Shown: positions 6,336 to 64,000 of the stretch, in pieces
Position numbering within the stretch: position 1 is the stretch's first letter
Layout of the letters: each line of letters starts with the position of its first letter
IMG/VR virus record: IMGVR_UViG_3300020161_001040
Span: 6,467-70,466 of that record
Strand: one strand, 5' to 3'
Source of the DNA: a virus
Lineage: Duplodnaviria > Caudoviricetes
DNA: 64,000 bases
Notes under the pieces: model-generated
What the model saw: only the letters and a program-made list of their open reading frames with translations
The model's database searches: none
Told to the model about the DNA's origin: nothing
Program-made: the position numbers and the translations under genes

Positions 6336-6835
6336 ATAGGATCGACCAGTTAGTGGTCGCATATTATCATATGTATATAAATAGATATAGCGAAATATCA
6401 AGATTCACCAGAATTAACACGATCCTCGCCGCATCGATTGGCGAGATCCCAGGCAACACAGATTTGGCTAAGCTCAAAGAGGCCGAAAAGAATGCTTTAA
6501 AGTCAACGGTCAGGTCTTACCAGATAGGGGCGGTGATTTATAAAGGTAAGAAGACTTTATCGGTTGGCTACAACAAATGGAAGACTCACCCGTGGCAAGC
6601 CAGATTTAATACCAGATCCGTGTCACTCCACGCCGAAATAGACGCCATTCTCACCGCAATGAGATTCGATCACATCCTACCCGGCAGCACCATAGCGATC
6701 AGTAGAATGCGTTCTAATGGAAACATTGGAGCCTCCTATCCGTGTTTCGAGTGCATGAATGCTCTCAGCCACGTGGGAGTATCTAAGGTGGTATGCATCG
6801 GCGTTGACTTCAATCCTATTAAAGTCAATCTTTAG
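6314..6835 (+). CDS. Zn-dependent cytidine/dCMP deaminase-like protein (start uncertain)
   Basis: IGAVI..GYN, HAE and PCFEC zinc motifs. Confidence 0.8.
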   Translation: MEVSDQIDRIDQLVVAYYHMYINRYSEISRFTRINTILAASIGEIPGNTDLAKLKEAEKNALKSTVRSYQIGAVIYKGKKTLSVGYNKWKTHPWQARFNTRSVSLHAEIDAILTAMRFDHILPGSTIAISRMRSNGNIGASYPCFECMNALSHVGVSKVVCIGVDFNPIKVNL

Positions 6836-50565: not shown

Positions 50566-53500
50566 TCACTGGTTGAACATTCCGCCGCTTCTCATTTGGC
50601 GGCGAGTTTCATCTGCGTACATGGCCCTAAACTGATCAGCAACCGCCTTAGCCACTTGATTACCAAGATCAGCATTCTGCTCAGAAGTACCAGAACTACC
50701 AGCCACATTAACAGTGACGTTGACGGTGATGGCAGGACCGCCCTGGGATTCCATCATAGCAGAAGGCGTACCCCTGCTAGAAGAGGCTATTTCCTGCGGA
50801 GTGTTACCCATCCAATCCTGCAACATCGAGCGCCCGTCGAGAACCACGGTCCCGGCGTTAATCATCAAGCTGCTGGTCGTAAGTTGGGACCCGATGGGAG
50901 ATTCCATCGGAGAGCCTCTGAACGTATCGCTCATTGCTTCAACGCCGAGTCTGCCATTCGGTAGTCTACGCAGCGGCATGATTGCCTCTGGTCCCGCTTC
51001 CCCCATTAAACCATACCCGTTCCTCATAGGGAATAAGGTAGGCTGGGTTACTAGACCACCCGTCGCGTAGGGGGTGACTCGCCCACCACTAAACACGCCG
51101 CCCATAGCATATTTTTTCTCACCGCCCGCCATAGGCGCACCACCGGAAAATACTCCGCCATCTCCGAATGTCATTCCCATAGATTCAAGGATTAGCTTAA
51201 AGCCCATCATAAAGACTTTCTTTATGATGATCTCTTCGATCACCTTAGCTAAGAAGTCCGTGATAAAGGACCTAGCCATTTCCTTGAACGAACCCTTGCC
51301 GGTGGTCAGCAACTCAGCAAAGTGGCGCGAAGTGATTCTAGCGAAGCCAGACATGGCTTCACCGGCCAGACCAATTTCCGTGGAGAGATTAACAAACGAC
51401 TCTTTCATATTGAGCGCTTGGCCTAGTTGATCATAAGCGATTTCAAGTTCCCCAACTTGGGTTCTGGCTCCATCCAATAACTCGTTGTGTCTAATGATGG
51501 CCTCATCAGTAGAGGAAATCTCCGACCTCAACCTCTCCGCTTCGCTACCTGACCCCCGATTGGTGTCCTCCAACCCAGTTAGTTGGGTACGGCGCGCTTC
51601 ATTTTCCGCAGAGAATTGGTTTACTCTGCGAGTACCGTCGTTTATGAAATTGTTGATTGACCCAACGCGCTCGTCACGTTCATTGTTATTTTGGGTTCTA
51701 TCTCTGCGAATCCCAGACAAAGCATTAATGCGCTCAGCCTCACGATCAAATCCAAATGTTCTCAGCAGATCACTCTCGTTAGAGATCTGGGAAGTTTCTA
51801 CTCTGTTGTTTAACTCCCTCATTCTCCTATTACGAGGGTTGTTCGGGTTATTAGACATGCTATCAAAACCGGAATTAGCGGCATCTAATCTAGCCTGCCT
51901 TACTCCGATCTGTGTTCTGAGAGCGGCAGCCTGAACGCCTCCACCCTGGCCGGAAGCCTCTAGGCGAGCTAAGCCACTGCCTAAATCATTCACAGCCTGC
52001 CTATAACGATTGATTTCGTCTATGAAAGCGGACAGCGATTTCAGATCCTCGTCTACTCCAGTTAGACCAGCGGCACGGGAAGCACTTTCCAGGGCGGAGT
52101 CTCTGCGGTCTATTCTACGGATCGCGTTGGCCATCAACTCCAGGTTTACAATCTGCTTGCGCTGAGACTCACTTAGATTTTCTCCGCCCACTAATACGCT
52201 TTCGTAATATTCTTCGGCAGCTTGAGTGGAGTTAGTCCAACCAGTAACGGTGCGCTGGAGACGGGCGATCATGTTATTGAAAGAGTTGGCGGCACCATCA
52301 GTAGCACCAGTGGCGTTTCTAATCGCACCATCTCTAATCTGCTGGGTGGAAGCATTGACCTCAGCAATGATTTGTTCATTACTTAGATCTTTTCTGGTAA
52401 TTCTAAGGAACCTATCGGCTTGCCAGCGAAACGCTTTTTCTTGGCTCGCTCCGCCTTTACCTTTGCTGGTCGATAACGCTTTTTCAAATTCTTTCCGAGC
52501 TTCCTCCAATCTCGACTGTTGCTGTAACTGGCTCCGTTCGGCATCGGTCACTGGTCTGGCAGTTAGACCGGCCCTTGACTGAGCTAGCAAAGCAGAAGCC
52601 GGGCCAGCGGTTCCTGCAGTGGCGAGTGCCGACAGTCCGTTTCTGATGACTCCGTTCACCTCGCTGGTAAATTTAGCGCCAGAAAAACTACTTAGTAAGC
52701 TTTGTAGATCGCTAAGAGCAGAGAACGCTCTACCCGTCATACCGGCTACACCACGGAGGCTGGAAGTGATGCCGTCATTCTGGAGAATATGCTGGGCAGC
52801 AGCCTCGCCCGCCATCTTGCGAGCTTCGGCCATCAGTTTTTCCAAGCTCTCAACTTGTCTGACAACAGGAGCGCCTTGCAGCAGAGCTTCTGCCTTCCTC
52901 TCTTCGAGTCTCACATTAGAGGCTAAAGCGATATTTTGAGTCTCTAATTCTTGGGTGCGCTGCGTAGTTAGATCATCTCTATACTTACCTATTCCGCGAT
53001 TCATAACACTAAGTCCACGCTGTTGCGCGAACTGGGCAACATCGCGATCAATACCTTCTGGAACGGCTGCGATAGTCGTGCGTTTTCTGACGTCATCGAT
53101 GGCGCGAGAAACTTCAAGATCTTTTTGTTTGGCACTAGTTACCCCAGCCAAAGCTTTAGCTAATTCTCCGTTATCACGGATTCCATTTTGACGAAGTAAT
53201 TTCTCGGCATCTAGCTGGGCATTCATTTGATCAACCGCCTCAGTGCCGAGACGATAAGCGGACGCTAATCTTTCAGTATCTCTAATTTCTTGATCAGCGT
53301 TGCTTAGAGCGGTAACATACGGCTGCATTCTTCTGGAGTATCGTTCTAGATTGGACGCCTTTTCAGCTTCAATCATGGCTTTAGTAGCGGCTTCAAGTGT
53401 ATCCTGAGAACCAGGACTTTCCGAATCAACATTGCGATTACCGATTACATCTTTAAAAGCTTTCATTCCAGCCTCTGACGCAGCGTTTTTATCTGCTAGA

Positions 53501-56500
53501 TTTAGGATCTGGGCCGGATCTCCAGTCAGGGACGTTATAGACGTCTCGACGGATCTACGAGATGCTTGCTGCGACGTTCTGGCTCGTTCTTCTAGAGCTA
53601 GAGTTTCGTTTTTAATATATTCGGCTCTTTGATTTTCGATAAGGAAAGATATAATCCGAAGCTCTCCCTCTCTCTTAATTAAGTCGTTCAACTTCTTTTG
53701 AGCGTCTTCACGGTCTTGGGTGGCTCTAGTTATATCTTCCTGACTACCGCTCTGGTTAACTAGGTCATTTTGGTTTTGATCAGCAGTGATTAAGGCTCCT
53801 CTGGCGTATTCAACGGCTCTTCTAGCGGAGTCTAACAACCCAAGCTGAACCTGATCTCCAATGATTCTAAAATCTAGGCCGAGACTTCTGCGGATTTCGG
53901 AAAGCTCATACAGCTTACGAGATAACTCATCAAGTCCTTCCGTAGCAAACTTGCGAGTCTCCTTATTAGCGTTTTCAATAGCATCTCTATAATCGAAATT
54001 CACGACATTGGCCGCATCTGCAGCTTGCTTAGCTAATGCACCGGTTCTGTCGGCTAGTTGTTGACTGGTAGTACCTGCATCTCTTTCAGCATTCACTTGC
54101 GCGATTAAATCACGACTTTCTGTTTGGTCAACTATGTTAAATCTTCTGGCTTCCTTGATAGCAGAAATTCTAGAGTCTCTGAGATTATTTCTTCTTTGTT
54201 GTTCTACAAGAGCAGCCTTTTTGGTTTCTGCCTCAACCCCATTCTGAGTTTCCTTATTCAGGGTAGCCTGGGCCTGGGCAACGTCTAAAATGATATCCCT
54301 ATTTCTCAACAGCAACAGAGCCATATCACTGTAAGCGTCAGGATTGGCTCTTGAATTCTCTGCGTTCTTTAGTCTTTCAAGTAACACAAAATACTCTTGC
54401 ATCTGGGGCATCAATTCCCTAATGCGAGCTTCTGGTACCCCTGTACGGCGAACCATGCCCCCTATCTGTCGGTTATCTAGATTCGTTTGATTTACAAGGC
54501 TGAGAGAAGAAGCGGCGGATTCTCCGTGTTTAGCACGAATTTCGGAAAGAATTTGTTGGCGTCTGGCTGCCGCATTTAACATCTGGTCCATGCTTACGTC
54601 AGTGCCTCTTAAGGCCCGAGTCATTTCATCTCGTAAATTTCTCCCGGTATCTACAGTTCCGCCAAGTACGCCCGACACGCCTCCGGATTCCACTCTGGTA
54701 GTGGTTCCAAGATATTGATTCACTGCCTGTCTGGCAGTGTCGGCAGCCTTAGCGGAGTCCTGTAGCTGCTTATTGATGTCGTTGATGGCGTTAGTCATAT
54801 TCATTGAAGTGTAGTTGCCTTGGAGCAACCGTTCGTTGGCTTGCCTTAAAGCGTCTATCCGTCCAGTAGCGGCGTCCAAATCTTTCTGAACTTGGGTAGT
54901 ACGATCTTTAGTTAAAATATACCAAGCAGCGAATGCGGTCCCTGCGGCTGCTATCCACCCCACAACGGGAACACCAGCCAGGAACATGGCGGCGCGACCT
55001 AAAAGACCTATACCGGCGGCTGCCTTGGCTGCAGCTAGTGAAATCATAGTGGCTCCAGCTGCCTGAGTAGTCATCACTACAGCTAGACCGGCCAGAGCTA
55101 TAGCCGCGCCTTCACTTTGAAGCTTAAATTGATTGGCCGGATCAGTAACCCTCTGGTACACAGTACCAGCATTATTGATCTCGTCAGTTACTCTAGACAT
55201 TTCCTCTCGTAGCTGCATCAGTTCTTGGCGAACCTGATCCAATTGTCTTCTAGGAATTTCAGCCCTTAGGGCATTACGAGTGCCTCGCATATTCTCGTTG
55301 AAGGATGGGGTAGCATTATTAACTTGATTATTCAGAGAAGCTTCGGATCTCTCTAACTGCTTGCGTCTATCTTCCAATCTATTTAAACGAATTTCCATCT
55401 CGTTTAATGGACGATTGGCTGCTCCAGAGATGGAAGCTGACCCCGTATTGGGATCAAGTGCTGCTTTCATGGTCATAATCGACGCCGACGCTTTGTCAGC
55501 CGATGTAGAAATGCCCATGAAGTATTCGGGAATACCAGCTAATATGCCCGATAATAACACTGCAGCTATAGTTCCACCGCGTAGAGCCATCGCTACGCCG
55601 GTCAACAGAGCGGCTACACCAGACATAGCCAGAAGAGCGCCAAAAGCTAAGACGAGTCTGGATACTAGCTCAACATTTCTTTCAATAACCCCGGCGAACT
55701 TGTCGAATCCTTTAACAAAATCATTGATAAGTTCTCTGATGGGGCCACCGTTCATCACGGATTCAAGGGTATCAATGATTCTCTTGAACCCACTCTCTAG
55801 ACCAATCTTGAACAAATCCTGAGAGAATACAGTGAAAGTATTCTTAAGTCTGTTAAATTCAGCTAGGATTTTATTAGACATCAAGGCAGCAGCGTCAGCC
55901 ATATCGGTGCGCATTAATCTAGCGACTACGGGCAGTACCTGACTGGCCGTTACTTCGCCAGCCTTCATAGCTTCTTCGAACTGTTGCATCCGTTCGGTAG
56001 TGATTCTGGTAGTCTCATCGATTTCACCGCGAGCGATGAAGAAGGCTCTGGCGAATGTATTGGCGACACCGGGAAGTCTATCGCCTAATTGCTGCCTTAA
56101 TTCTTCCGCCATTACCTTGCCCTTGTTCATCATCTGCTCAAAGGCTCTGATGATGCCACGGGTGTTCTCAGAATCCATACCGAGAGCCTGAGAAGCGACG
56201 ATGGTGGACTCAAAGATGCTACGAAGCTGGTCCTGGCTATAACCCATAGCTTGGGCAGCGGCAGCCAATCTAGCGTAAGGCTGAACTAGGTCACCATACG
56301 AGACACCAAGCTGATCGGCGGTTGTCTTCAGATACTCCATTTCACGATTAGCGCCTTGGATTGTCGGGAAAGTCGCCCTTAGGGCAGCTTCCATTCTATC
56401 CATGGCGATTGAGGTCTGAGTGACAGCCGTGACTATAGTTACAAATCCGGTAGCGTACAACACAGCTTGCAGAGTATCGAGAGAATCGATCACTCTACTC

Positions 56501-59500
56501 ATGCTTCTAGCTTGCTCTAGGAACGCCCTGCTATTATTCTTCTGAGCCTCAAGGAACGAAGCCTTCCTTTGCTCAGTCTTGGCTATCTCGGTCTGTAAGC
56601 TCAGTAAGAGATTTTGTTGAGTAACAATAGACTGATTAACTCTATCGATTTGATCTTTGTACTTATCATCTAGAACTCCAATACCTCCTTCAGATCGGTC
56701 TTTAGCAATGTTCTGAATTTCTTTAAGCTTAGTCTTCTGTAGTTCAATACTGTCAGCTACTACGGAAGAAACATCTTTGAGCTTAGATAGGGAAGACTCA
56801 TAGGAATCGATGCTTTGCTTGGTTGATGCGAACTCAGTACGAACCTGAGCCATCACCAATTTAGCCGTGGAGGAAACGTCTCTTAATCCAGAGTTGATCT
56901 GACGAAATTGATCCGCTCCTATAATGTTGAACATTGAAGCTTGCTGGGGCTGACGGCTTCCCATAGACGTGATAGTCTTGTTGATAGACTCAAGTTGAGT
57001 CTCAGCCTTGTCTAGGGTCCCAAGGGCTGAGGTGAAGGACCGCTCGACACGAGAATCAGCAGCATCACCAAAGGCTCTTCTATACTCCACCCACCCGTCT
57101 CTGAATTTGCCGATTGCCTCAGAATAAGCGTCTCTGAACGAATTAAGGCGACCAATATGGTCAGCCGTTGGCATAGCCGTACCAATTTCTTTGTTAACTT
57201 CACGAATAGCCGAGCGCAGTTCGTAATAACTACGAATTATAGCATCAGCGCTGGGGGGCAGAGCGCCGCCGCCCGAACCATCAGCGTCTGGAGGAGTGGG
57301 GGGAAGACCGCCACCGCCACCGGTTCCTCCACCGCCGCCACCGATTCCTCTGCCACCGCCACCGCCACCGCCACCGCCATTGACCAAGCGATCTGATTGT
57401 TTGATCAGAGAAGAAATTTGGGACAGAGCCCCTCTCATACGATTAGCTGATTCTTTAGTGCTCTTTCCGAGAGAATCGCCCTTTTGCTCTACATATTCCA
57501 AATTGCGACCTAAAGCTTCGGCCATGGGGCCGTAAGCCGCTGCTACGAACTGTTTGAAATCTTCTAATTTTCTACGAGTATTTTCGGTAACTGTTCCAGT
57601 TAAATTTAACTCGGCCTTAATCTCAGTAGCTAGTGTTTTAGAAGCATTAGCGATTTTCTGAAAAATGCCAAACTTCGCGTCCTCAGTCACAACGGCACCA
57701 GTGGATTGCGTGAGACGCTCAATTAGTCCGGCGCGAAGTTTCTGAATGGATGATATATCTGAATTAGGCAGCAAGCTGTTGAGATCGGTAGCAATGGAGC
57801 GGATACGATCATCCCGTGTAGCAGTGCCGACCTGACTTAATTTCGTATAGAACTCCATCGCGGGCTTGAATACATTTATGGCCGTCTGAGTATCTCGAAT
57901 GGCCCGGTCGACTAGAGCCACCATCCCTTGGTCAGCTTTTTGATCATTAGCTAACAATTCTTTGGTCTTGGATAATTTCTCAGCGTTCTGATTAAGCTGC
58001 TCAATAACTTTAGCTTGTCTTTCAGGATTTTGTAAAGCCTCATCCGCAGTCTTCCTCAAGTCGACTAAACGCTCTTGAGTGAGAGATGAATTCTTGAGTC
58101 TGGTTTCCAATTCCCCGGATAGCGTGTTGGCCTTCCCAGCTTCAGTTGTACGGTTGTTGGCGTATCGATTCATTTCCAGAATTTCCGCCCGTTCTAGCGC
58201 CTGTCTCATGCCTGGGCTTATATTGGCGCTAGCCTTAGTCTTTGCGTCGGTAAGAACTGCTATAATGTCACGAGTGGTCTTCGCCATGTTTAACATATCG
58301 GCGGCGCGAGCTTCCGAAATCTTCGCGTCCTGAGCCAGCCTCTTAACTGACTCTGCCATCAAAGCGTCGTATACCTTAGAGTTGACTCCTACGTCATAAC
58401 CGGCTTCATGGGCTAAATCAGCGTCGTATCCAACTCCATATCGCTGAGCCACGGCACCTAGTGCATTAGGAACTCCGGGATTTAGGAATCTGGCTAATTC
58501 AAGGGTATCAATGGTATTAACTTTACCGAGCATCTCATAATCTTCTTTAGAGATGCCTCGTCCCACATAGAAGCTAGCTGCCTCTTTCATTTTGCTAATA
58601 TCGAACTTGTCGATGTTATGACCAACCAGTACCAATTCTCCGGTAGCTTCCTTCATTCCCTTAATGAAATTAATAAATTTATTGATAGCCTTCATCTCAT
58701 CAAAAGTATCAGGACCACCCTGTAATACCGCTTCGCCCATCTTTTTAGCGCCGGAAGTCAAGGGGGTAGAATCGTCATCTTCCCCCATAAACTTGCGCAA
58801 GCCACCAAGAAAATCTCTAAGATCCTCGACATTGCGCTTCACGTAAACGTTCATAGACTGCGCGTCTTGACCGCCTACGACTCTCTGAGCGAATATCTGT
58901 AGTATGCGGTTAACTTGAGAACCATCGTCCCTAGGCTTGAAAGCAGTCTCGATATCAAATACGACGCGAGGACGTAAATCTCTCTGTAGTTTGTTAACAG
59001 CTGTTTGATCGACCATATTAGACGTCGATTTCCTAAAATCAGCAATATCCGTGTTCATTTTTACAATAATTTGCTCAATCCGATTCAACTCCGCACGAGC
59101 ATTGCCAAGTGCTTCCTTGCTGAATAGGGCTTTGTCCCCATCCATAAATCCTAGCTTATCCATCACATTGAGAGTGGATACGAAAGTGGCAGCAGATTTG
59201 CGGGCCGATTCGAATTTGACGGGCATAACTTCAAGATCGCGAGACATCTGAGCAAATCTAATGTCTCTGTCAGATCCGGTGAGTCCTGACAACTCCGATT
59301 TGAATTTATTTAATGTTCTGGTTGATTTCTCAGAACTACTGGCAAGAGCGGTAAACATCTTGTCGTTGTAGCCAAGTGCGGAAGTAAAATTATTTACGCT
59401 TACTTTATTATCTTTCATCAACCTAAAGAAGTCTTCAAATTCAGACGACAAACCCGCTATACTAGTCTTAGTTTGGTTAGTAGCCGTCAGAATATCTAAA

Positions 59501-59796
59501 ACTCTACCACGAAGACCAGCGCTCATGTCTTTCGATAAACTGGCGAAAGACTTCCTTTGTTCAATTTCGATCTCTTCTACTCTGCTCAGAAATCCTACTA
59601 ACTTTTCAATCTCCCTAATCTTTCCGGTGATATTACCAGCAATAGATCTGGAATAATTAGCAAGATCCTTCGTATTTTCAGTAGCCTGTCTCAGTGGTCC
59701 CTGAATTTCCTTAGCAGTATTGATTAGCTTATATACATCACCGAGATCACCGACCTTGGCGTTAATTTCAATAGTGATATCAGCGAGATCTGTCAT
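50566..59796 (-). CDS. Tape measure protein (3076 aa)
   Basis: KGKVMAEELRQQLGDRLPG tape-measure domain; YATGG..LMGEAGPEAIMPL C-terminus; lies between chaperones and M. Confidence 0.95.
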   Translation of the reverse strand: MTDLADITIEINAKVGDLGDVYKLINTAKEIQGPLRQATENTKDLANYSRSIAGNITGKIREIEKLVGFLSRVEEIEIEQRKSFASLSKDMSAGLRGRVLDILTATNQTKTSIAGLSSEFEDFFRLMKDNKVSVNNFTSALGYNDKMFTALASSSEKSTRTLNKFKSELSGLTGSDRDIRFAQMSRDLEVMPVKFESARKSAATFVSTLNVMDKLGFMDGDKALFSKEALGNARAELNRIEQIIVKMNTDIADFRKSTSNMVDQTAVNKLQRDLRPRVVFDIETAFKPRDDGSQVNRILQIFAQRVVGGQDAQSMNVYVKRNVEDLRDFLGGLRKFMGEDDDSTPLTSGAKKMGEAVLQGGPDTFDEMKAINKFINFIKGMKEATGELVLVGHNIDKFDISKMKEAASFYVGRGISKEDYEMLGKVNTIDTLELARFLNPGVPNALGAVAQRYGVGYDADLAHEAGYDVGVNSKVYDALMAESVKRLAQDAKISEARAADMLNMAKTTRDIIAVLTDAKTKASANISPGMRQALERAEILEMNRYANNRTTEAGKANTLSGELETRLKNSSLTQERLVDLRKTADEALQNPERQAKVIEQLNQNAEKLSKTKELLANDQKADQGMVALVDRAIRDTQTAINVFKPAMEFYTKLSQVGTATRDDRIRSIATDLNSLLPNSDISSIQKLRAGLIERLTQSTGAVVTEDAKFGIFQKIANASKTLATEIKAELNLTGTVTENTRRKLEDFKQFVAAAYGPMAEALGRNLEYVEQKGDSLGKSTKESANRMRGALSQISSLIKQSDRLVNGGGGGGGGGRGIGGGGGGTGGGGGLPPTPPDADGSGGGALPPSADAIIRSYYELRSAIREVNKEIGTAMPTADHIGRLNSFRDAYSEAIGKFRDGWVEYRRAFGDAADSRVERSFTSALGTLDKAETQLESINKTITSMGSRQPQQASMFNIIGADQFRQINSGLRDVSSTAKLVMAQVRTEFASTKQSIDSYESSLSKLKDVSSVVADSIELQKTKLKEIQNIAKDRSEGGIGVLDDKYKDQIDRVNQSIVTQQNLLLSLQTEIAKTEQRKASFLEAQKNNSRAFLEQARSMSRVIDSLDTLQAVLYATGFVTIVTAVTQTSIAMDRMEAALRATFPTIQGANREMEYLKTTADQLGVSYGDLVQPYARLAAAAQAMGYSQDQLRSIFESTIVASQALGMDSENTRGIIRAFEQMMNKGKVMAEELRQQLGDRLPGVANTFARAFFIARGEIDETTRITTERMQQFEEAMKAGEVTASQVLPVVARLMRTDMADAAALMSNKILAEFNRLKNTFTVFSQDLFKIGLESGFKRIIDTLESVMNGGPIRELINDFVKGFDKFAGVIERNVELVSRLVLAFGALLAMSGVAALLTGVAMALRGGTIAAVLLSGILAGIPEYFMGISTSADKASASIMTMKAALDPNTGSASISGAANRPLNEMEIRLNRLEDRRKQLERSEASLNNQVNNATPSFNENMRGTRNALRAEIPRRQLDQVRQELMQLREEMSRVTDEINNAGTVYQRVTDPANQFKLQSEGAAIALAGLAVVMTTQAAGATMISLAAAKAAAGIGLLGRAAMFLAGVPVVGWIAAAGTAFAAWYILTKDRTTQVQKDLDAATGRIDALRQANERLLQGNYTSMNMTNAINDINKQLQDSAKAADTARQAVNQYLGTTTRVESGGVSGVLGGTVDTGRNLRDEMTRALRGTDVSMDQMLNAAARRQQILSEIRAKHGESAASSLSLVNQTNLDNRQIGGMVRRTGVPEARIRELMPQMQEYFVLLERLKNAENSRANPDAYSDMALLLLRNRDIILDVAQAQATLNKETQNGVEAETKKAALVEQQRRNNLRDSRISAIKEARRFNIVDQTESRDLIAQVNAERDAGTTSQQLADRTGALAKQAADAANVVNFDYRDAIENANKETRKFATEGLDELSRKLYELSEIRRSLGLDFRIIGDQVQLGLLDSARRAVEYARGALITADQNQNDLVNQSGSQEDITRATQDREDAQKKLNDLIKREGELRIISFLIENQRAEYIKNETLALEERARTSQQASRRSVETSITSLTGDPAQILNLADKNAASEAGMKAFKDVIGNRNVDSESPGSQDTLEAATKAMIEAEKASNLERYSRRMQPYVTALSNADQEIRDTERLASAYRLGTEAVDQMNAQLDAEKLLRQNGIRDNGELAKALAGVTSAKQKDLEVSRAIDDVRKRTTIAAVPEGIDRDVAQFAQQRGLSVMNRGIGKYRDDLTTQRTQELETQNIALASNVRLEERKAEALLQGAPVVRQVESLEKLMAEARKMAGEAAAQHILQNDGITSSLRGVAGMTGRAFSALSDLQSLLSSFSGAKFTSEVNGVIRNGLSALATAGTAGPASALLAQSRAGLTARPVTDAERSQLQQQSRLEEARKEFEKALSTSKGKGGASQEKAFRWQADRFLRITRKDLSNEQIIAEVNASTQQIRDGAIRNATGATDGAANSFNNMIARLQRTVTGWTNSTQAAEEYYESVLVGGENLSESQRKQIVNLELMANAIRRIDRRDSALESASRAAGLTGVDEDLKSLSAFIDEINRYRQAVNDLGSGLARLEASGQGGGVQAAALRTQIGVRQARLDAANSGFDSMSNNPNNPRNRRMRELNNRVETSQISNESDLLRTFGFDREAERINALSGIRRDRTQNNNERDERVGSINNFINDGTRRVNQFSAENEARRTQLTGLEDTNRGSGSEAERLRSEISSTDEAIIRHNELLDGARTQVGELEIAYDQLGQALNMKESFVNLSTEIGLAGEAMSGFARITSRHFAELLTTGKGSFKEMARSFITDFLAKVIEEIIIKKVFMMGFKLILESMGMTFGDGGVFSGGAPMAGGEKKYAMGGVFSGGRVTPYATGGLVTQPTLFPMRNGYGLMGEAGPEAIMPLRRLPNGRLGVEAMSDTFRGSPMESPIGSQLTTSSLMINAGTVVLDGRSMLQDWMGNTPQEIASSSRGTPSAMMESQGGPAITVNVTVNVAGSSGTSEQNADLGNQVAKAVADQFRAMYADETRRQMRSGGMFNQ
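58350..58975 (-). other. DEDDh 3'-5' exonuclease domain embedded in tape measure protein (aa about 275-480)
   Basis: VVFDIET (D281,E283), LVGHNIDKFD (D399), IDTLELAR, AHEAGYD (H463,D468). Confidence 0.85.
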
Positions 59797-60550
59797 TTTT
59801 TGTTCGCCTCGTGATAGGCGTTTAGATAGAGGTTATCTATCGCCTTGAGGATGTCTACCTCATAAGACGATAACACAGCCCCCGCATGACGAGAATAAGA
59901 GGCAAAGTCATCGAGTGAGAACCTATTAGGTCCCCACCCGTTACTGCCTCGCCACTGGTTTAGATCGAAGAAGGTACCGATGAATCCAGCGGCCTGATCG
60001 CCTATCTCGGGTTCTCGGTCATCGTCGTTTACCCTTCTTCCCTTAGCGACAAGCTCCTGGATGAATGGGAGCTTGTCGCCGTCCTTCGAATGGAGGAGCT
60101 TAAATCTCCACTTACACCATTCGTATACTTCGTCTTCTATTCCTACTTGATAAAATTTCCAGTCTCATTGATCTCCTCATCAAGCTGCTCGCGAATCCAG
60201 GCGAGGCGAGAATCGGAAAGAATCTTCACGGCATTGGCATAGCTGCACTCAAGCATCTTGCCGTCCAGGGTGATGTTCTTCCAGGACTTAATGCAGCGAG
60301 CGATGAGTTCAATCGTCTCAGCTTCGATCTCCTCAGAGGTGATCTTACCGCGACCGCCGCGCTGCGCGAGACGACGATTCTGGACGGCGCGCTGGTGCTT
60401 CTGGTACTCGTCCGAGTACTTACCAATAATAGTAATCGTGATCTTCTCACCATCATCAGTGATGAGAGGGACGCGCTTCACGGGATGGAGAATTTCGACT
60501 TCTCTACCCTGATTGGAACCGGACGCTACGTCTAGGCTAGAAAGATCCAC
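59793..60550 (-). CDS. Tail assembly chaperone GT (programmed -1 frameshift product)
   Basis: -1 frame open for 119 codons after slip site (..FFDLNQWRGSNGWGP..YEVDILKAIDNLYL), TGA overlaps TMP ATG. Confidence 0.8.
60143..60550 (-). CDS. Tail assembly chaperone G
   Basis: ITIIGKYS, IKSWKNI..DG..LECS..NA..WIREQL; upstream of TMP. Confidence 0.85.
   Translation of the reverse strand: MDLSSLDVASGSNQGREVEILHPVKRVPLITDDGEKITITIIGKYSDEYQKHQRAVQNRRLAQRGGRGKITSEEIEAETIELIARCIKSWKNITLDGKMLECSYANAVKILSDSRLAWIREQLDEEINETGNFIK
60152..60158 (-). other. -1 ribosomal slippery heptamer A AAT TTT
   Basis: X XXY YYZ in GGA AAT TTT, three codons before the G stop. Confidence 0.8.
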
Positions 60551-60599: not shown

Positions 60600-60797
60600 C
60601 TACTGCTGCGGTGTAGGCACCGGGTACGAGCTAGAGCCCGTCTCGGTGGCCTCCGGGGGCAGCGGGAGGCCCATCGGCTGGGTATCTCTAAGGCGAGCCT
60701 GTAGGACTTCGTTCTGAGCCATCAACTGGGCGCACAGATTTAAGGCATCGTTCCTCTGGCGCTCAATAGAACGGATTAGAGCTTCTGCGTATTCCAT
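60600..60797 (-). CDS. Small coiled-coil hypothetical protein
   Basis: GAGG RBS; QRNDALN motif. Confidence 0.65.
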   Translation of the reverse strand: MEYAEALIRSIERQRNDALNLCAQLMAQNEVLQARLRDTQPMGLPLPPEATETGSSSYPVPTPQQ

Positions 60798-60860: not shown

Positions 60861-62126
60861 CTAACCAGCCGGAAGGGGAGGTCGGACCATTTGCCCCTCC
60901 ATACTTACTATAACCGCGCCCGTGAGTCTGTGCAAGGCTGCCATCATTATCCCAAGATTATACGCGAATTCATTGTGACAGGTTTGATTAAAATAGTCAC
61001 CTTTTAAATACATACACCCACCTTTACACAGTTGCACTACTGGGCAACTCATGCACTCTTCTCTGTAGGTCAGATGGGTGGAAGTGGTTAACTTAATATC
61101 GTCAAAAGCGTCTAAATGACCGATTTTGTGAGAACCTTTCGCCCCGGTGTTCTGGCAAGTCATCACGTTACCTTGCAAATCCACGGCAATGTGATCAGGT
61201 CTATCCATTCCGCACTTTTGCCAAAGTGCATTCACCGGTCTACGCTGAAATAACGAATGAATGAAATCATGGACCTTATAATCTAATCCATCTATGGTGG
61301 ATAACGGCTCGTTCGACTCCATAGAATAAAATACAGAACTAGTTAGCTCTTTCAGCTTGTCGGAACTAAACCGACCAGATCCGTTCAGTGTATCCGCGTC
61401 GTAAACATTAACCACTCCTTCGATATTGATCCTAACGGGATGATCGAATTTCTGAGCAAACCAATCGCGCAGGGCTATTAAATCGAATGAATCTGAGCTT
61501 AATACTGAGTTAATATGATGAGTATCAGATTTAGCTAGAAGTCTGCTCCAAATCTTAAGAAGGCCATGATCATCAAGTGGATCGGGACCTCTCAAGTGTT
61601 GCCCTGGGCCGTCATGACTGATTGCTATTGAGATGTTGTTTTGTTCAATGAAATCCACCACTGAATCATCAAGTAAAGATCCATTGGTGACCATTGAGAT
61701 TCTAGATTCTGGCCATATTTCTTTGATCTTCGGCACCAGGAACTTAATCTTATTTAAATACAGAAGAGGCTCGCCGCCCCACAACTCAACTCTACTGGGG
61801 GCCGCATCAAACCATTGGCTGACCTTGTTGATGAAATTCTTTGCATCTGAGATACTGGACGCAGTAGCTTGTTTAATGAAAGAAGACTGTGAGCAATAGC
61901 TGCAGCTGTAATTGCATCCCAGACCCAACTGAATCTTTAGATTCTTAACGGATCTGGATTTGGGATTAGGAGTTAGCTCAGAGGTGGGTGACGCCGCTCT
62001 AAATTCCTTGATCTTCTCGTCGGACAGGATATCGCTGCCATCAGAATTTTTCAGGGTATTCAAATGTGGATCGTACACCAGGGTAAAACTATTACCCTCT
62101 CTGGAATTCATATTCAGCTTGAACAT
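60861..62126 (-). CDS. Radical SAM/SPASM domain protein
   Basis: CNYSCSYC, ELWGGEP, MVTNG, ISHDG; SPASM cysteines KCG..TCQ..CMSC..LCKGGC..TCH. Confidence 0.93.
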   Translation of the reverse strand: MFKLNMNSREGNSFTLVYDPHLNTLKNSDGSDILSDEKIKEFRAASPTSELTPNPKSRSVKNLKIQLGLGCNYSCSYCSQSSFIKQATASSISDAKNFINKVSQWFDAAPSRVELWGGEPLLYLNKIKFLVPKIKEIWPESRISMVTNGSLLDDSVVDFIEQNNISIAISHDGPGQHLRGPDPLDDHGLLKIWSRLLAKSDTHHINSVLSSDSFDLIALRDWFAQKFDHPVRINIEGVVNVYDADTLNGSGRFSSDKLKELTSSVFYSMESNEPLSTIDGLDYKVHDFIHSLFQRRPVNALWQKCGMDRPDHIAVDLQGNVMTCQNTGAKGSHKIGHLDAFDDIKLTTSTHLTYREECMSCPVVQLCKGGCMYLKGDYFNQTCHNEFAYNLGIMMAALHRLTGAVIVSMEGQMVRPPLPAG

Positions 62127-62127
62127 T

Positions 62128-62844
62128 TCAGACCTTAGCGATCTTGATCGAGGAATAATTGCTCCAGTGTCTGAATCCTACTTTGATTTCAGCTTCATCA
62201 CCGACGCTCATGCCAAGAGGTTGAAAAGTAAAAGTCCCTTGACCATTTTCCAGCTTGACCTTTCTGGGAACGAAGCCGTTGTCAGTTTTCAGATAAACGT
62301 GACAAGAAGCGGGGCCGTCCACAGTTACAGTAAACACCCCGCCAGAATCGCTGACCGTCAGCGGACCGGATACGTCCATATCAAAATGATAGGCTTTACG
62401 ACCGCTGGTAAATTGCCTGTTGCGAATATTCACCGTCATTGAAGGATTGAAGACCGCGACCGCCTCGGGGTGAAGGTTCACAATGTAAAATGCCTCGCTA
62501 AAACTAGAATCTCCCGGTCTGATAAAGATATGCAGCCATTTGGTGCCTGCGGGCAAAAACGGAATGGCGTCCTTAAATTCCTGCTTAGTGGTGGCAGTCA
62601 TGGCATGAGCATTGTATAAGGGGGGTATGCTATTTACCGACGCCGCATTCTCTGGCAAATACGACAGAACCCATCTATCGTAGTCCCCAGCTTCGCTGTG
62701 ATTAATAAGTTGATCCCACGTGATTTGGCTAGCGATGTGGTTAGCTACCGCTGTCAAGGTCTTGGCGTCTTCACTGAATGTTATAGACACGTCGGACGGA
62801 GCGTCTAGGGCGTCTTTGTACACTAAAAAATATGAATTTCTCAC
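62128..62844 (-). CDS. Hypothetical protein with beta-rich (Ig-like) C-terminus, partner of the radical SAM enzyme
   Basis: GTGA overlap with oxygenase, 1 nt from rSAM start. Confidence 0.7.
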   Translation of the reverse strand: MRNSYFLVYKDALDAPSDVSITFSEDAKTLTAVANHIASQITWDQLINHSEAGDYDRWVLSYLPENAASVNSIPPLYNAHAMTATTKQEFKDAIPFLPAGTKWLHIFIRPGDSSFSEAFYIVNLHPEAVAVFNPSMTVNIRNRQFTSGRKAYHFDMDVSGPLTVSDSGGVFTVTVDGPASCHVYLKTDNGFVPRKVKLENGQGTFTFQPLGMSVGDEAEIKVGFRHWSNYSSIKIAKV

Positions 62845-63554
62845 ATCTGGCTCCTGATCTTCACGATGTCATCAACCGATTTATAGACCTCTCCTGAGGC
62901 TTCTCCCTCAAGGGCTCCGGTAAATCTGATATTAGATATCAACGCTCTTTTATGCGACCCTTGCTTAAACATAGGCATAGTAGAATGCGGAGCATTACCT
63001 GGGAAGATGACTAATACACCAGAGGTATTCCCTATGGGAAAAATTGGCGTCTCCCGCCTAGCGAATTGACCACTCATTAACGCCTTAGGATTGTGGAAAG
63101 TGAGTTGACCGGCCAGGGGATGGTCACCTTCTTCTACGACCACTCTAGGATAATAGGTAGCAACTAGTTGGTTACCATGGTGAGCATGATACATGCTGAA
63201 ATCTTGATGATCTTCTACATTACCCCACATGTTGATTTTAAATTGGGTATATTCGTGAGGGTCTAAATTATACGCTTCTTTAAGATATTTAATTGCCATT
63301 ATACATTTAATTTGCATCAATTCTTCAACGGCTCTGCTCTTGTAATTCAGTAAAATATTATTAGGGATGGCGTGCTTAAAGCCGGACTGATAGCGAGCCA
63401 TACTCTTTTCTGCGTAATCTTCGGCAATCTCTACTAATTCGTTGTTCCAAGAATCGGGAGCGTCGATTGGTACTCTCATAACATACGTGGGCCAAAGGGC
63501 AAGCATGTTATGATCACCAACGTTAACGTCATAATCCATTTTATGTTGCTCCAT
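62841..63554 (-). CDS. Putative 2OG-Fe(II) oxygenase (TIGR02466-like)
   Basis: LWPTYV, NMWGN, HAHHGNQLVATYY, GQLTFHNP, LVIFPG..PHS. Confidence 0.8.
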   Translation of the reverse strand: MEQHKMDYDVNVGDHNMLALWPTYVMRVPIDAPDSWNNELVEIAEDYAEKSMARYQSGFKHAIPNNILLNYKSRAVEELMQIKCIMAIKYLKEAYNLDPHEYTQFKINMWGNVEDHQDFSMYHAHHGNQLVATYYPRVVVEEGDHPLAGQLTFHNPKALMSGQFARRETPIFPIGNTSGVLVIFPGNAPHSTMPMFKQGSHKRALISNIRFTGALEGEASGEVYKSVDDIVKIRSQM

Positions 63555-63580: not shown

Positions 63581-63814
63581 TTACGCGGTATCCGTAGAAC
63601 AAGCACAAGCACAATTACAGGCGTTGCTCTTATGTAAAGTTACAGTATCCGTGGTATAAGAGAGAGACATTAACTTAATGGGCTGAGTACCATCTCCTGT
63701 AGTATCTACATTTACGCTCAGCACCCTCGATGGACGATTGATAATTCTAGACCACGGGATATTGCCCGAAGAATCTATGACTAAGGTACCTGAAATGTAT
63801 ACGGCCATAGACAT
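63581..63814 (-). CDS. Cys-rich small protein B (C-terminal ACNCACACSTDTA)
   Basis: ORF track plus manual check; ATG overlaps upstream TGA. Confidence 0.8.
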   Translation of the reverse strand: MSMAVYISGTLVIDSSGNIPWSRIINRPSRVLSVNVDTTGDGTQPIKLMSLSYTTDTVTLHKSNACNCACACSTDTA

Positions 63815-63981
63815 CAATCCCCTGAACTGTCAGTGGAACAGGCACAAACGCAGTTGCAATCAGTGCTTATTATGTAAGTCAAATTCCCTGTAGAGTAATT
63901 GTAAACTATATCATTAAATCTAGCCCAATCTATTTGAGCCGATAAGTTAAATACGGTGGTGCCAGATACAATAATCGTCAT
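63814..63981 (-). CDS. Cys-rich small protein A (55 aa, C-terminal DCNCVCACSTDSSGD; not in ORF track)
   Basis: Manual translation MTIIVSGTTVFNLSAQIDWARFNDIVYNYSTGNLTYIISTDCNCVCACSTDSSGD; AGGGGG RBS; paralog of B. Confidence 0.85.
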   Translation of the reverse strand: MTIIVSGTTVFNLSAQIDWARFNDIVYNYSTGNLTYIISTDCNCVCACSTDSSGD

Positions 63982-64000
63982 GTCGGCCCCCTAAAATAAA

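Follow-up and report, generated by a model that had tools for sequence, protein, structure and literature searches.

Near one end of a phage genome fragment, two small genes encode peptides that close with strictly alternating cysteine residues, and a gene for a radical SAM (rSAM) enzyme lies 1.45 kb downstream of them. The locus raises the question of what these peptides do, and the link between the peptides and the rSAM enzyme is the key to their function. The stretch of DNA that was analysed (the window) comprises 64,000 nucleotides, positions 6,467 to 70,466 of the IMG/VR record IMGVR_UViG_3300020161_001040; all of its genes described below lie on the minus strand.

Peptide A, which was absent from the ORF list available to the initial annotation, was identified as a genuine minus-strand ORF of 55 aa (63981..63814). 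Peptide B (63581..63808, minus strand) has 75 aa when translated from the second ATG. Both are ORF translations and predicted mini fibre proteins. Their proposed paralogy was confirmed, as both open with (V/I)-S-G-T-x-V ... I-x-W-x-R and close with C-x-C-x-C-x-C-S-T-D, and the middle between the conserved ends is variable, as had been suggested. The Cys tract with its S-T-D extension spans 63829..63858 in A (minus strand; Cys at residues 42, 44, 46 and 48 of the translation) and 63590..63619 in B (minus strand; residues 64, 66, 68 and 70). Translational coupling of the two genes had also been proposed, and the TGA of A indeed overlaps one ATG of B (TGATG). Starts at 63817, 63814 and 63808 would yield B proteins of 78, 77 and 75 aa, respectively. 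The second ATG at 63808, 6 nt downstream of the overlapping one, matches the N-termini of the paralogs and has the better Shine-Dalgarno spacing, with an A-G-G-G-G-A sequence 9 nt before it, and is therefore the likelier start. Shine-Dalgarno-like sites precede all four genes of the array to which A and B belong (see below).

A six-frame scan for further C-x-C peptides, which the initial annotation had recommended, covered the whole 70,466-bp genome and found C-x-C-x-C-x-C in A and B only, among ORFs of real length, so the motif is not a product of chance. Comparison of a longer sibling contig (L001) with its orthologs in a diverged relative (L002), in which the B ortholog is 61-68% identical, gave pS ~0.78 and pN ~0.23, with synonymous sites saturated. 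These values indicate that the genes of the array, A and B included, are real coding genes under purifying selection. Searches of Pfam, PHROGs and NCBIfam with the A and B peptides returned no family and only one spurious weak match. The best E value in a tblastn search of 50,697 cultured phage records was ~2, megablast of the A/B region against phages gave zero matches, and the ESM Atlas matches of the small proteins were confined to viral clusters without a name and scored too low to be meaningful.

The window ends where the contig ends. A protein identical to B is encoded on the ENA contig L001 (133.6 kb) and its sibling L148 (125.8 kb). On both, a gene for a 1505-aa Peptidase_S74 tail fibre is followed by two extra paralogs of 74 and 80 aa, which lie directly upstream of A. 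The earlier expectation that more copies might lie beyond the window edge was thus correct for these near-identical longer contigs, and A and B belong to an array of four tandem paralogs. The array is kept in L001, L148, L149 and L002, and the 55-aa form of A is also present in the sibling assemblies L001, L148 and L149. The DNA of A matches that of the 80-aa paralog with 98.4% identity in the 5' part and 93.7% in the 3' part, the upstream 61 bp are identical, and a single in-frame deletion of 25 codons separates the two genes. A is therefore a very recent deletion copy of the 80-aa paralog located just past the contig end. The duplication of the 80-aa gene that gave rise to A explains why the window contig and the independent JGI contig L149 break here; both end inside the duplicated 61-bp intergenic stretch that precedes the gene for A (window 63982-64000, L001:9773-9833, L149:1-62). 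The near-identical tandem paralogs are a recurrent assembly breakpoint, so that short-read assemblies will under-count such arrays. The array recurs in the diverged relative L002, where the Cys tracts are shorter. There, the first paralog (57 aa, L002:387-560) stops before the Cys tract and may be a decaying copy or a tail-less variant. When a profile of the small proteins was run against the ORFs of the phage itself, only the four small genes were matched, and the large fibres did not contain the repeat.

A profile built from ten family members was searched against 1.84 billion representative proteins and matched 128 representative clusters. Small proteins accounted for 84 of these matches, and about 64 of the 84 end in a Cys tract. 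Eleven matches of intermediate length consisted of the same small protein with the tract followed directly by a Hint-type self-cleaving domain. In several others the entire module formed the C-terminal domain of longer fibres, some of them collagen-like; in L007 and P0062, the tract comes right after collagen-like repeats. Another 27 matches were giant fibre proteins that align with the N-terminal ~40 residues only, repeatedly (up to 11 copies) and without a Cys tract. These internal repeats suggest that the conserved N-terminus of A and B is a generic fibre repeat unit.

Structure prediction pointed to a folded protein with a flexible tail. An AlphaFold2 monomer model of B was computed from a 61-sequence family alignment (mean pLDDT 79). 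It shows a compact all-beta fold over residues 1-61, and disorder is confined to the accessible Cys tail at residues 62-75. C64, C66 and C68 of B and the Trp position are nearly invariant in the same alignment. Foldseek searches of the PDB and BFVD with the model returned nothing significant. Fibre homology is suggested by the N-terminal repeats in giant fibre-like proteins and by the module at the end of collagen-like, gp36-like and Hint fibres; however, neither Pfam nor PHROG gave a tail-fibre match, and no fold match was significant. The initial annotation had described the peptides in terms of a conserved leader and core. If this is taken in the RiPP sense, it is not supported: the N-terminal segment is a repeat unit of fibres, with as many as 11 copies in giant ones, and is predicted to be folded rather than a cleavable leader. 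In contrast, the accompanying idea of small fibre-like structural proteins with the Cys tract as a putative crosslinked or metal-binding virion tip gained support. A and B appear to be fibre-related and are probably present in the virion.

The same data bear on the possibility that A and B are non-functional remnants or chance frames in which the Cys tract has no role. Such a reading would fit the origin of A as a deletion derivative, the tail-less paralog in L002 and the lack of a database family for the small proteins. It does not fit the purifying selection on the array genes, the recurrence of the same architecture in at least 64 representative clusters, the near-invariance of the Cys and Trp positions, or the retention of the array in several assemblies. 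Sequence conservation already contradicts it, and we consider it hardly credible.

With regard to the tract itself, the earlier description was partly right. Both A and B end in C-x-C-x-C-x-C-S-T-D, but the tract, which had been called invariant, varies, with 2-5 Cys in close relatives and 3 to 9 in the wider family. An S-T-D extension marks a minority subtype, present in 8 of 131 distinct tails. Among these 131 tails, the residue preceding the first Cys is Asn in 75%, the residues between Cys are mostly Asn (47%), Ala (16%) and Asp (11%), followed by Arg (6%), Gln (5%) and Val (5%), and the last Cys is the final residue in about 40% of the proteins. In each architecture, the tract reaches the mature C-terminus, either at a stop codon or directly before Hint or Peptidase_S74 cleavage. 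The Peptidase_S74 chaperone and Hint/BIL domains directly follow the tract in part of the family, and their cleavage would expose it as the C-terminus. A and B contain neither domain and reach a stop codon a few residues past the tract; the S74 domain of this phage is on the separate 1505-aa fibre upstream. An atypical case was observed at another locus (L017:6274-6762), where a gene downstream of the rSAM gene encodes a Gly-rich protein of 162 aa whose alternating tract of nine Cys is close to the N-terminus instead of at a C-terminus.

Three genes for a putative modification cassette follow B. The first encodes a 237-aa 2OG-Fe(II) oxygenase (62841..63554, minus strand), which passes the Pfam gathering threshold (PF13759, 29 bits vs a cut-off of 27) and matches phrog_81 (E 1.8e-18); related cassettes contain one to four PF13759 oxygenase genes each. 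The second encodes a 238-aa protein (62128..62844, minus strand), referred to here as the partner. It has no Pfam or PHROG family. Its C-terminal Ig-like beta-sandwich domain is predicted with confidence by AlphaFold2 (residues 155-238) and is homologous to RSP15 ORF047 (E 1e-6) and to partners at many loci; Foldseek with the partner model gave generic Ig-like matches only. The third gene encodes the rSAM enzyme, a predicted radical SAM/SPASM maturase of 421 aa (60861..62126, minus strand). It is followed by a coiled-coil-like ORF of 65 aa (60600..60797, minus strand), whose membership in the cassette is uncertain. Small coiled-coil ORFs were also seen directly before or after the rSAM gene in several unrelated loci (L042:6766-6957, L046:6721-6942, L004:8245-8649), and pairwise BLAST did not support homology. 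Three relationships suggested by visual inspection, namely of the window oxygenase to RSP15 ORF046, of the 65-aa ORF to JWF gp031 and of the partner to JWF gp029, were dropped after BLAST gave no support for any of them.

The cassette lies between the S74 tail fibre (seen on L001) and a tail assembly chaperone-like gene (60143..60550, minus strand; phrog_313, E 2.2e-15), a 3076-aa tape measure protein (50566..59796, minus strand; the identical L001 gene matches PF20155 TMP_3) and a J-like fibre. Downstream of the tape measure gene are tail assembly proteins, the 2139-aa J-like central fibre and further fibre genes. The tape measure, chaperone and fibre genes around it place the cassette inside the tail morphogenesis operon, and RSP15, JWF and dozens of loci show the same placement in the tail module. 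A tape measure protein of 3076 aa implies an unusually long non-contractile tail, and the sibling contigs of 126-134 kb are large for a siphovirus-type phage. ARAGORN predicted a tRNA-Tyr (98 nt, anticodon ATA, 53501-53598, plus strand) on the opposite strand inside the tape measure gene, which is probably a false positive.

The rSAM enzyme matches PF04055 with 40.6 bits (cut-off 29.5) and has the C71-x3-C75-x2-C78 motif. It was also compared with the SPASM pattern C-x9-15-G-x4-C, gap, C-x2-C-x5-C-x3-C, gap, C, and contains it in full (C305-x13-G-x4-C324, C358-x2-C361-x5-C367-x3-C371, C383). The SPASM cysteines are invariant in a three-phage alignment. Only peptide and protein maturases (nif11 rSAM, PapB, CcpM, QhpD, SCIFF) were found among its best NCBIfam matches, and it falls below every NCBIfam equivalog cut-off (TIGR04064, the best, 74.6 vs 518.7 bits; PapB, 73.4 vs 340; CcpM, 64.7 vs 500). 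Among solved structures, it is closest to 8VPO (a RiPP cyclopropylglycine synthase), CteB and anSME. No RRE (PF05402, PqqD-like) was found in the rSAM enzyme or its neighbours at E values up to 1. An anSME-like formylglycine reaction was rejected, as the sequence lacks a C/S-x-P/A-x-R motif.

The association between this enzyme clade and Cys-tailed proteins was assessed in both directions. In the forward test, 47 IMG/VR loci with the rSAM clade were collected, and the 29 with at least 3.5 kb upstream were counted. An ORF was scored if it was on the same strand and had at least three alternating Cys no more than 8 residues from the stop codon or directly before a Hint or S74 domain. One to four such ORFs were present in 24 of the 29 loci, and terminal-tract ORFs numbered 44 on the rSAM strand versus 5 on the opposite strand. 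A few rSAM loci (L015, L042, L046) were without a visible substrate. In the reverse test, which started from the small-protein family and was limited to loci with more than 1 kb downstream, all from one subclade, the rSAM, oxygenase and partner genes were present in 15 of 15 loci. The Ig-like partner recurs across rSAM loci, and tandem arrays of 2-4 substrate paralogs are common (e.g. L011, L020, L044, L079).

Two cultured phages conform to the same arrangement. In the Ralstonia phage RSP15 and the Achromobacter phage JWF, the rSAM homologs sit just after fibre genes; the RSP15 side tail fibre ends with a two-Cys version of the tract, and in the gp36-like fibre of JWF a tract of five Cys is immediately followed by a Hint domain. 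A cyclophane on the conserved Trp was rejected as the product, because JWF gp028 and RSP15 ORF048 have the tract without the N-terminal motif and yet accompany the rSAM enzyme. The most elaborate cassette among those examined is at L044:704-8541. It begins with a tandem of four substrate paralogs (170-196 aa) packed with N-C-x-N repeats and continues with the Ig-like partner, four PF13759 oxygenase paralogs, the rSAM gene and a fifth oxygenase fragment. A second, shorter rSAM protein (332 aa; PF04055 and weak DUF3641) is encoded between the partner and the main rSAM gene at L008:6296-7294.

In a tree of 51 enzymes, fibre association was distributed across all major branches. The pairing of the rSAM clade with Cys-tailed fibres is thus old and has been maintained. 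In bacterial genomes, a tract was found under the strict test in 14 of 25 loci, and the exceptions were two groups of classical RiPP clusters. The first group combines a YcaO-nitroreductase fusion, an ATP-grasp enzyme and a 68-aa peptide, the second a second rSAM enzyme, a PqqD protein and an ABC transporter. Both RiPP types form monophyletic groups nested in the 51-enzyme tree, that is, within the same enzyme clade, which places the phage enzyme in a lineage of polypeptide maturases. Burkholderiales and Gammaproteobacteria MAGs (L074:3477-8254 and L077) contain rSAM relatives with 43-46% identity in an apparently uncharacterised RiPP cluster with the gene content of the first group. In Bacteriovoracaceae MAGs (L086, L092), a second rSAM of 573 aa, a PqqD-like protein and an ABC-2 transporter pair were observed, and a precursor peptide was not identified at these two loci.

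The bacterial relatives raise the possibility that A and B are leader-core precursors which, after modification by the rSAM enzyme and the oxygenase, are released as a bacteriocin, signal or metallophore during infection. Besides the RiPP clusters of the relatives, the small size of the peptides, the paralog array, the conserved ends and the adjacent rSAM/SPASM and tailoring oxygenase genes would be in line with a diffusible product. However, the N-terminal segment is a fibre repeat in a predicted folded domain, and the module also ends long, gp36-like, collagen-like and S74-bearing fibres. Neither A nor B has a visible signal peptide. The cassette, within a tail morphogenesis operon, includes no leader peptidase, transporter or RRE, which further argues against a RiPP-type grammar; instead, the neighbours are the oxygenase, the Ig-like protein, the rSAM enzyme, the chaperone and the tape measure protein. 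Overall, we regard a diffusible product as very unlikely.

We propose instead that A and B are miniature proteins of the fibre tip, with a flexible Cys tail that serves as a substrate of the rSAM enzyme and is probably crosslinked by thioethers, a reading to which we assign a probability of about 60%. Each mini-protein would consist of a folded all-beta domain (the fibre-repeat N-terminus, the variable middle and a conserved hairpin) followed by the flexible tail with alternating Cys. The tail would be threaded into the rSAM/SPASM maturase and modified, most plausibly by ranthionine-type thioethers from the Cys sulfur to a carbon of the adjoining Asn, Ala or Asp. The product would be a redox-insensitive ladder, either rigid or stapling chains, at the distal end of the fibre. 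As a guess, the oxygenase may hydroxylate residues of the tract or fibre, and the partner may take over the substrate presentation that an RRE would otherwise provide. The action of the rSAM enzyme on the tract, the type of bond and the roles of oxygenase and partner are what we infer here, and genomic linkage is not proof of an enzyme-substrate relation. With this reservation, the phage probably modifies its fibre tips chemically.

Thioether chemistry appears likeliest because the nearest characterised relatives perform it, because the acceptor set of NxxcB fits, and because SPASM enzymes are known to crosslink whole proteins. We know of no verified direct precedent for crosslinks between adjacent residues in a C-x-C ladder. 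The thioether formed by NxxcB runs from Cys to the Asn beta carbon, and Ala, Gln and Asp can replace Asn as the acceptor (PMC9389541); this set mirrors the residues between Cys in the phage tracts. In this streptococcal RaS-RiPP system (NxxcB/NxxcA), as in the phage, an rSAM enzyme, which in NxxcB has auxiliary clusters, is paired with repeated Cys/Asn motifs. However, the NxxcA motif has N-x-x-C spacing and not strict alternation, and NxxcA is a short leader-bearing peptide from a quorum-regulated bacterial operon, whereas the phage substrate is a folded fibre protein from a tail operon. NxxcB also belongs to a named system, while the phage enzyme scores below all named-family cut-offs.

The SPASM enzymes CrpC (on CrpA, Methanococcus voltae) and QhpD (on QhpC) place ranthionine thioethers on whole proteins, and their substrates, like A and B, combine a C-terminal Cys-rich region with a conserved N-terminal part (PMC13692751). 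In contrast to the phage system, these are cellular proteins without a link to virions, they use an RRE-leader interaction, whereas no RRE was detected here, and their Cys motifs are C-x-x-(Q/D)-like repeats instead of C-x-C ladders. Phages are not mentioned in the CrpC paper (PMC13692751). PapB (freyrasin), CteB (SCIFF) and CcpM, to which the rSAM enzyme gave its best sequence matches in NCBIfam and the PDB, likewise act on precursors with C-terminal Cys-rich regions, but the phage enzyme scores far under their equivalog cut-offs. Compared with ranthipeptide and sactipeptide systems in general, the phage locus encodes no leader peptidase or exporter, and the putative substrates of the family span sizes from 55 aa up to fibre proteins of over 600 aa.

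The tract could alternatively serve, with no covalent modification, as a metal ladder, in which Cys facing the axis of a trimeric fibre bind metal ions or a metal-thiolate cluster and the rSAM enzyme acts elsewhere or aids metallation. Strict alternation would place all Cys on a single face of a beta strand, and collagen-like trimers are found just before the tract in L007 and P0062. C-x-C is also the classic metallothionein motif. An analogue at a fibre tip is the trimeric needle of T4 gp37, in which His-x-His repeats bind iron. The likeness lies in alternating potential metal ligands at the distal tip of a fibre (a location that is predicted for the phage tract); in gp37, however, the ligand is His, there is no dedicated modifying enzyme, and the repeats lie within a long needle domain, whereas the Cys tail is terminal. 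CrpA may bind metals according to its authors (PMC13692751). A metal ladder accounts neither for the nearly obligate pairing with a SPASM maturase throughout the enzyme tree nor for the strong bias towards Asn, Ala and Asp at the positions between Cys, and as a substitute for the proposed modification we consider it unlikely. The two are compatible, as a modified ladder could still bind metal.

Inter-chain disulfides, formed after release from the cell, might also lock the fibre trimer, in which case the neighbouring enzymes would be unrelated to the tract. Covalent trimer staples are familiar from collagens, such as the C-terminal cystine knot of collagen III, and the tract ends probably trimeric proteins, sometimes right after collagen repeats. 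Yet disulfides require no dedicated cytoplasmic set of enzymes, so the rSAM linkage would again be unexplained, and 3-9 strictly alternating Cys exceed what a knot needs. A disulfide staple or cystine knot is therefore quite unlikely, and enzymatic thioether crosslinking of the tail remains our preferred reading.

More broadly, many tailed phages may install a thioether ladder at the C-terminal tip of their fibres by means of an rSAM/SPASM-oxygenase-partner cassette, which would be a new class of virion modification. In the present phage, the free-standing mini-proteins of the four-gene array, with their variable middles, could be interchangeable stapled receptor-binding caps. This wider reading is tentative, and we would give it somewhat less than even odds. 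A literature search for rSAM enzymes in connection with phage tail fibres, SPASM, thioethers and RiPPs, and for JWF and RSP15, found no description of the module. New here are the free-standing form of 55-80 aa, the four-gene array with its recent deletion copy, the S-T-D subtype, the identification of the N-terminus as a fibre repeat, and the relatives of the enzyme in bacterial RiPP clusters.

Receptor-binding fibres decide the host range of phages and the stability of their particles, and their maturation is thought to proceed by chaperones and self-cleavage, not by radical enzymology. If the proposal is correct, the action of an rSAM/SPASM enzyme on fibre tips would be an additional kind of virion modification. 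RiPP-type chemistry would then reach the structural proteins of viruses, at a time when protein substrates are gaining recognition (CrpC/CrpA, 2026). It would also account for small genes and enzymes that carry public labels such as hypothetical or "anaerobic sulfatase-maturating enzyme". As putative natural substrates of 55-80 aa that are predicted to be well folded, the mini-proteins would be ideally suited to biochemical reconstitution. For phage engineering, the proposal would mean that fibres moved without their cassette might fail to mature.
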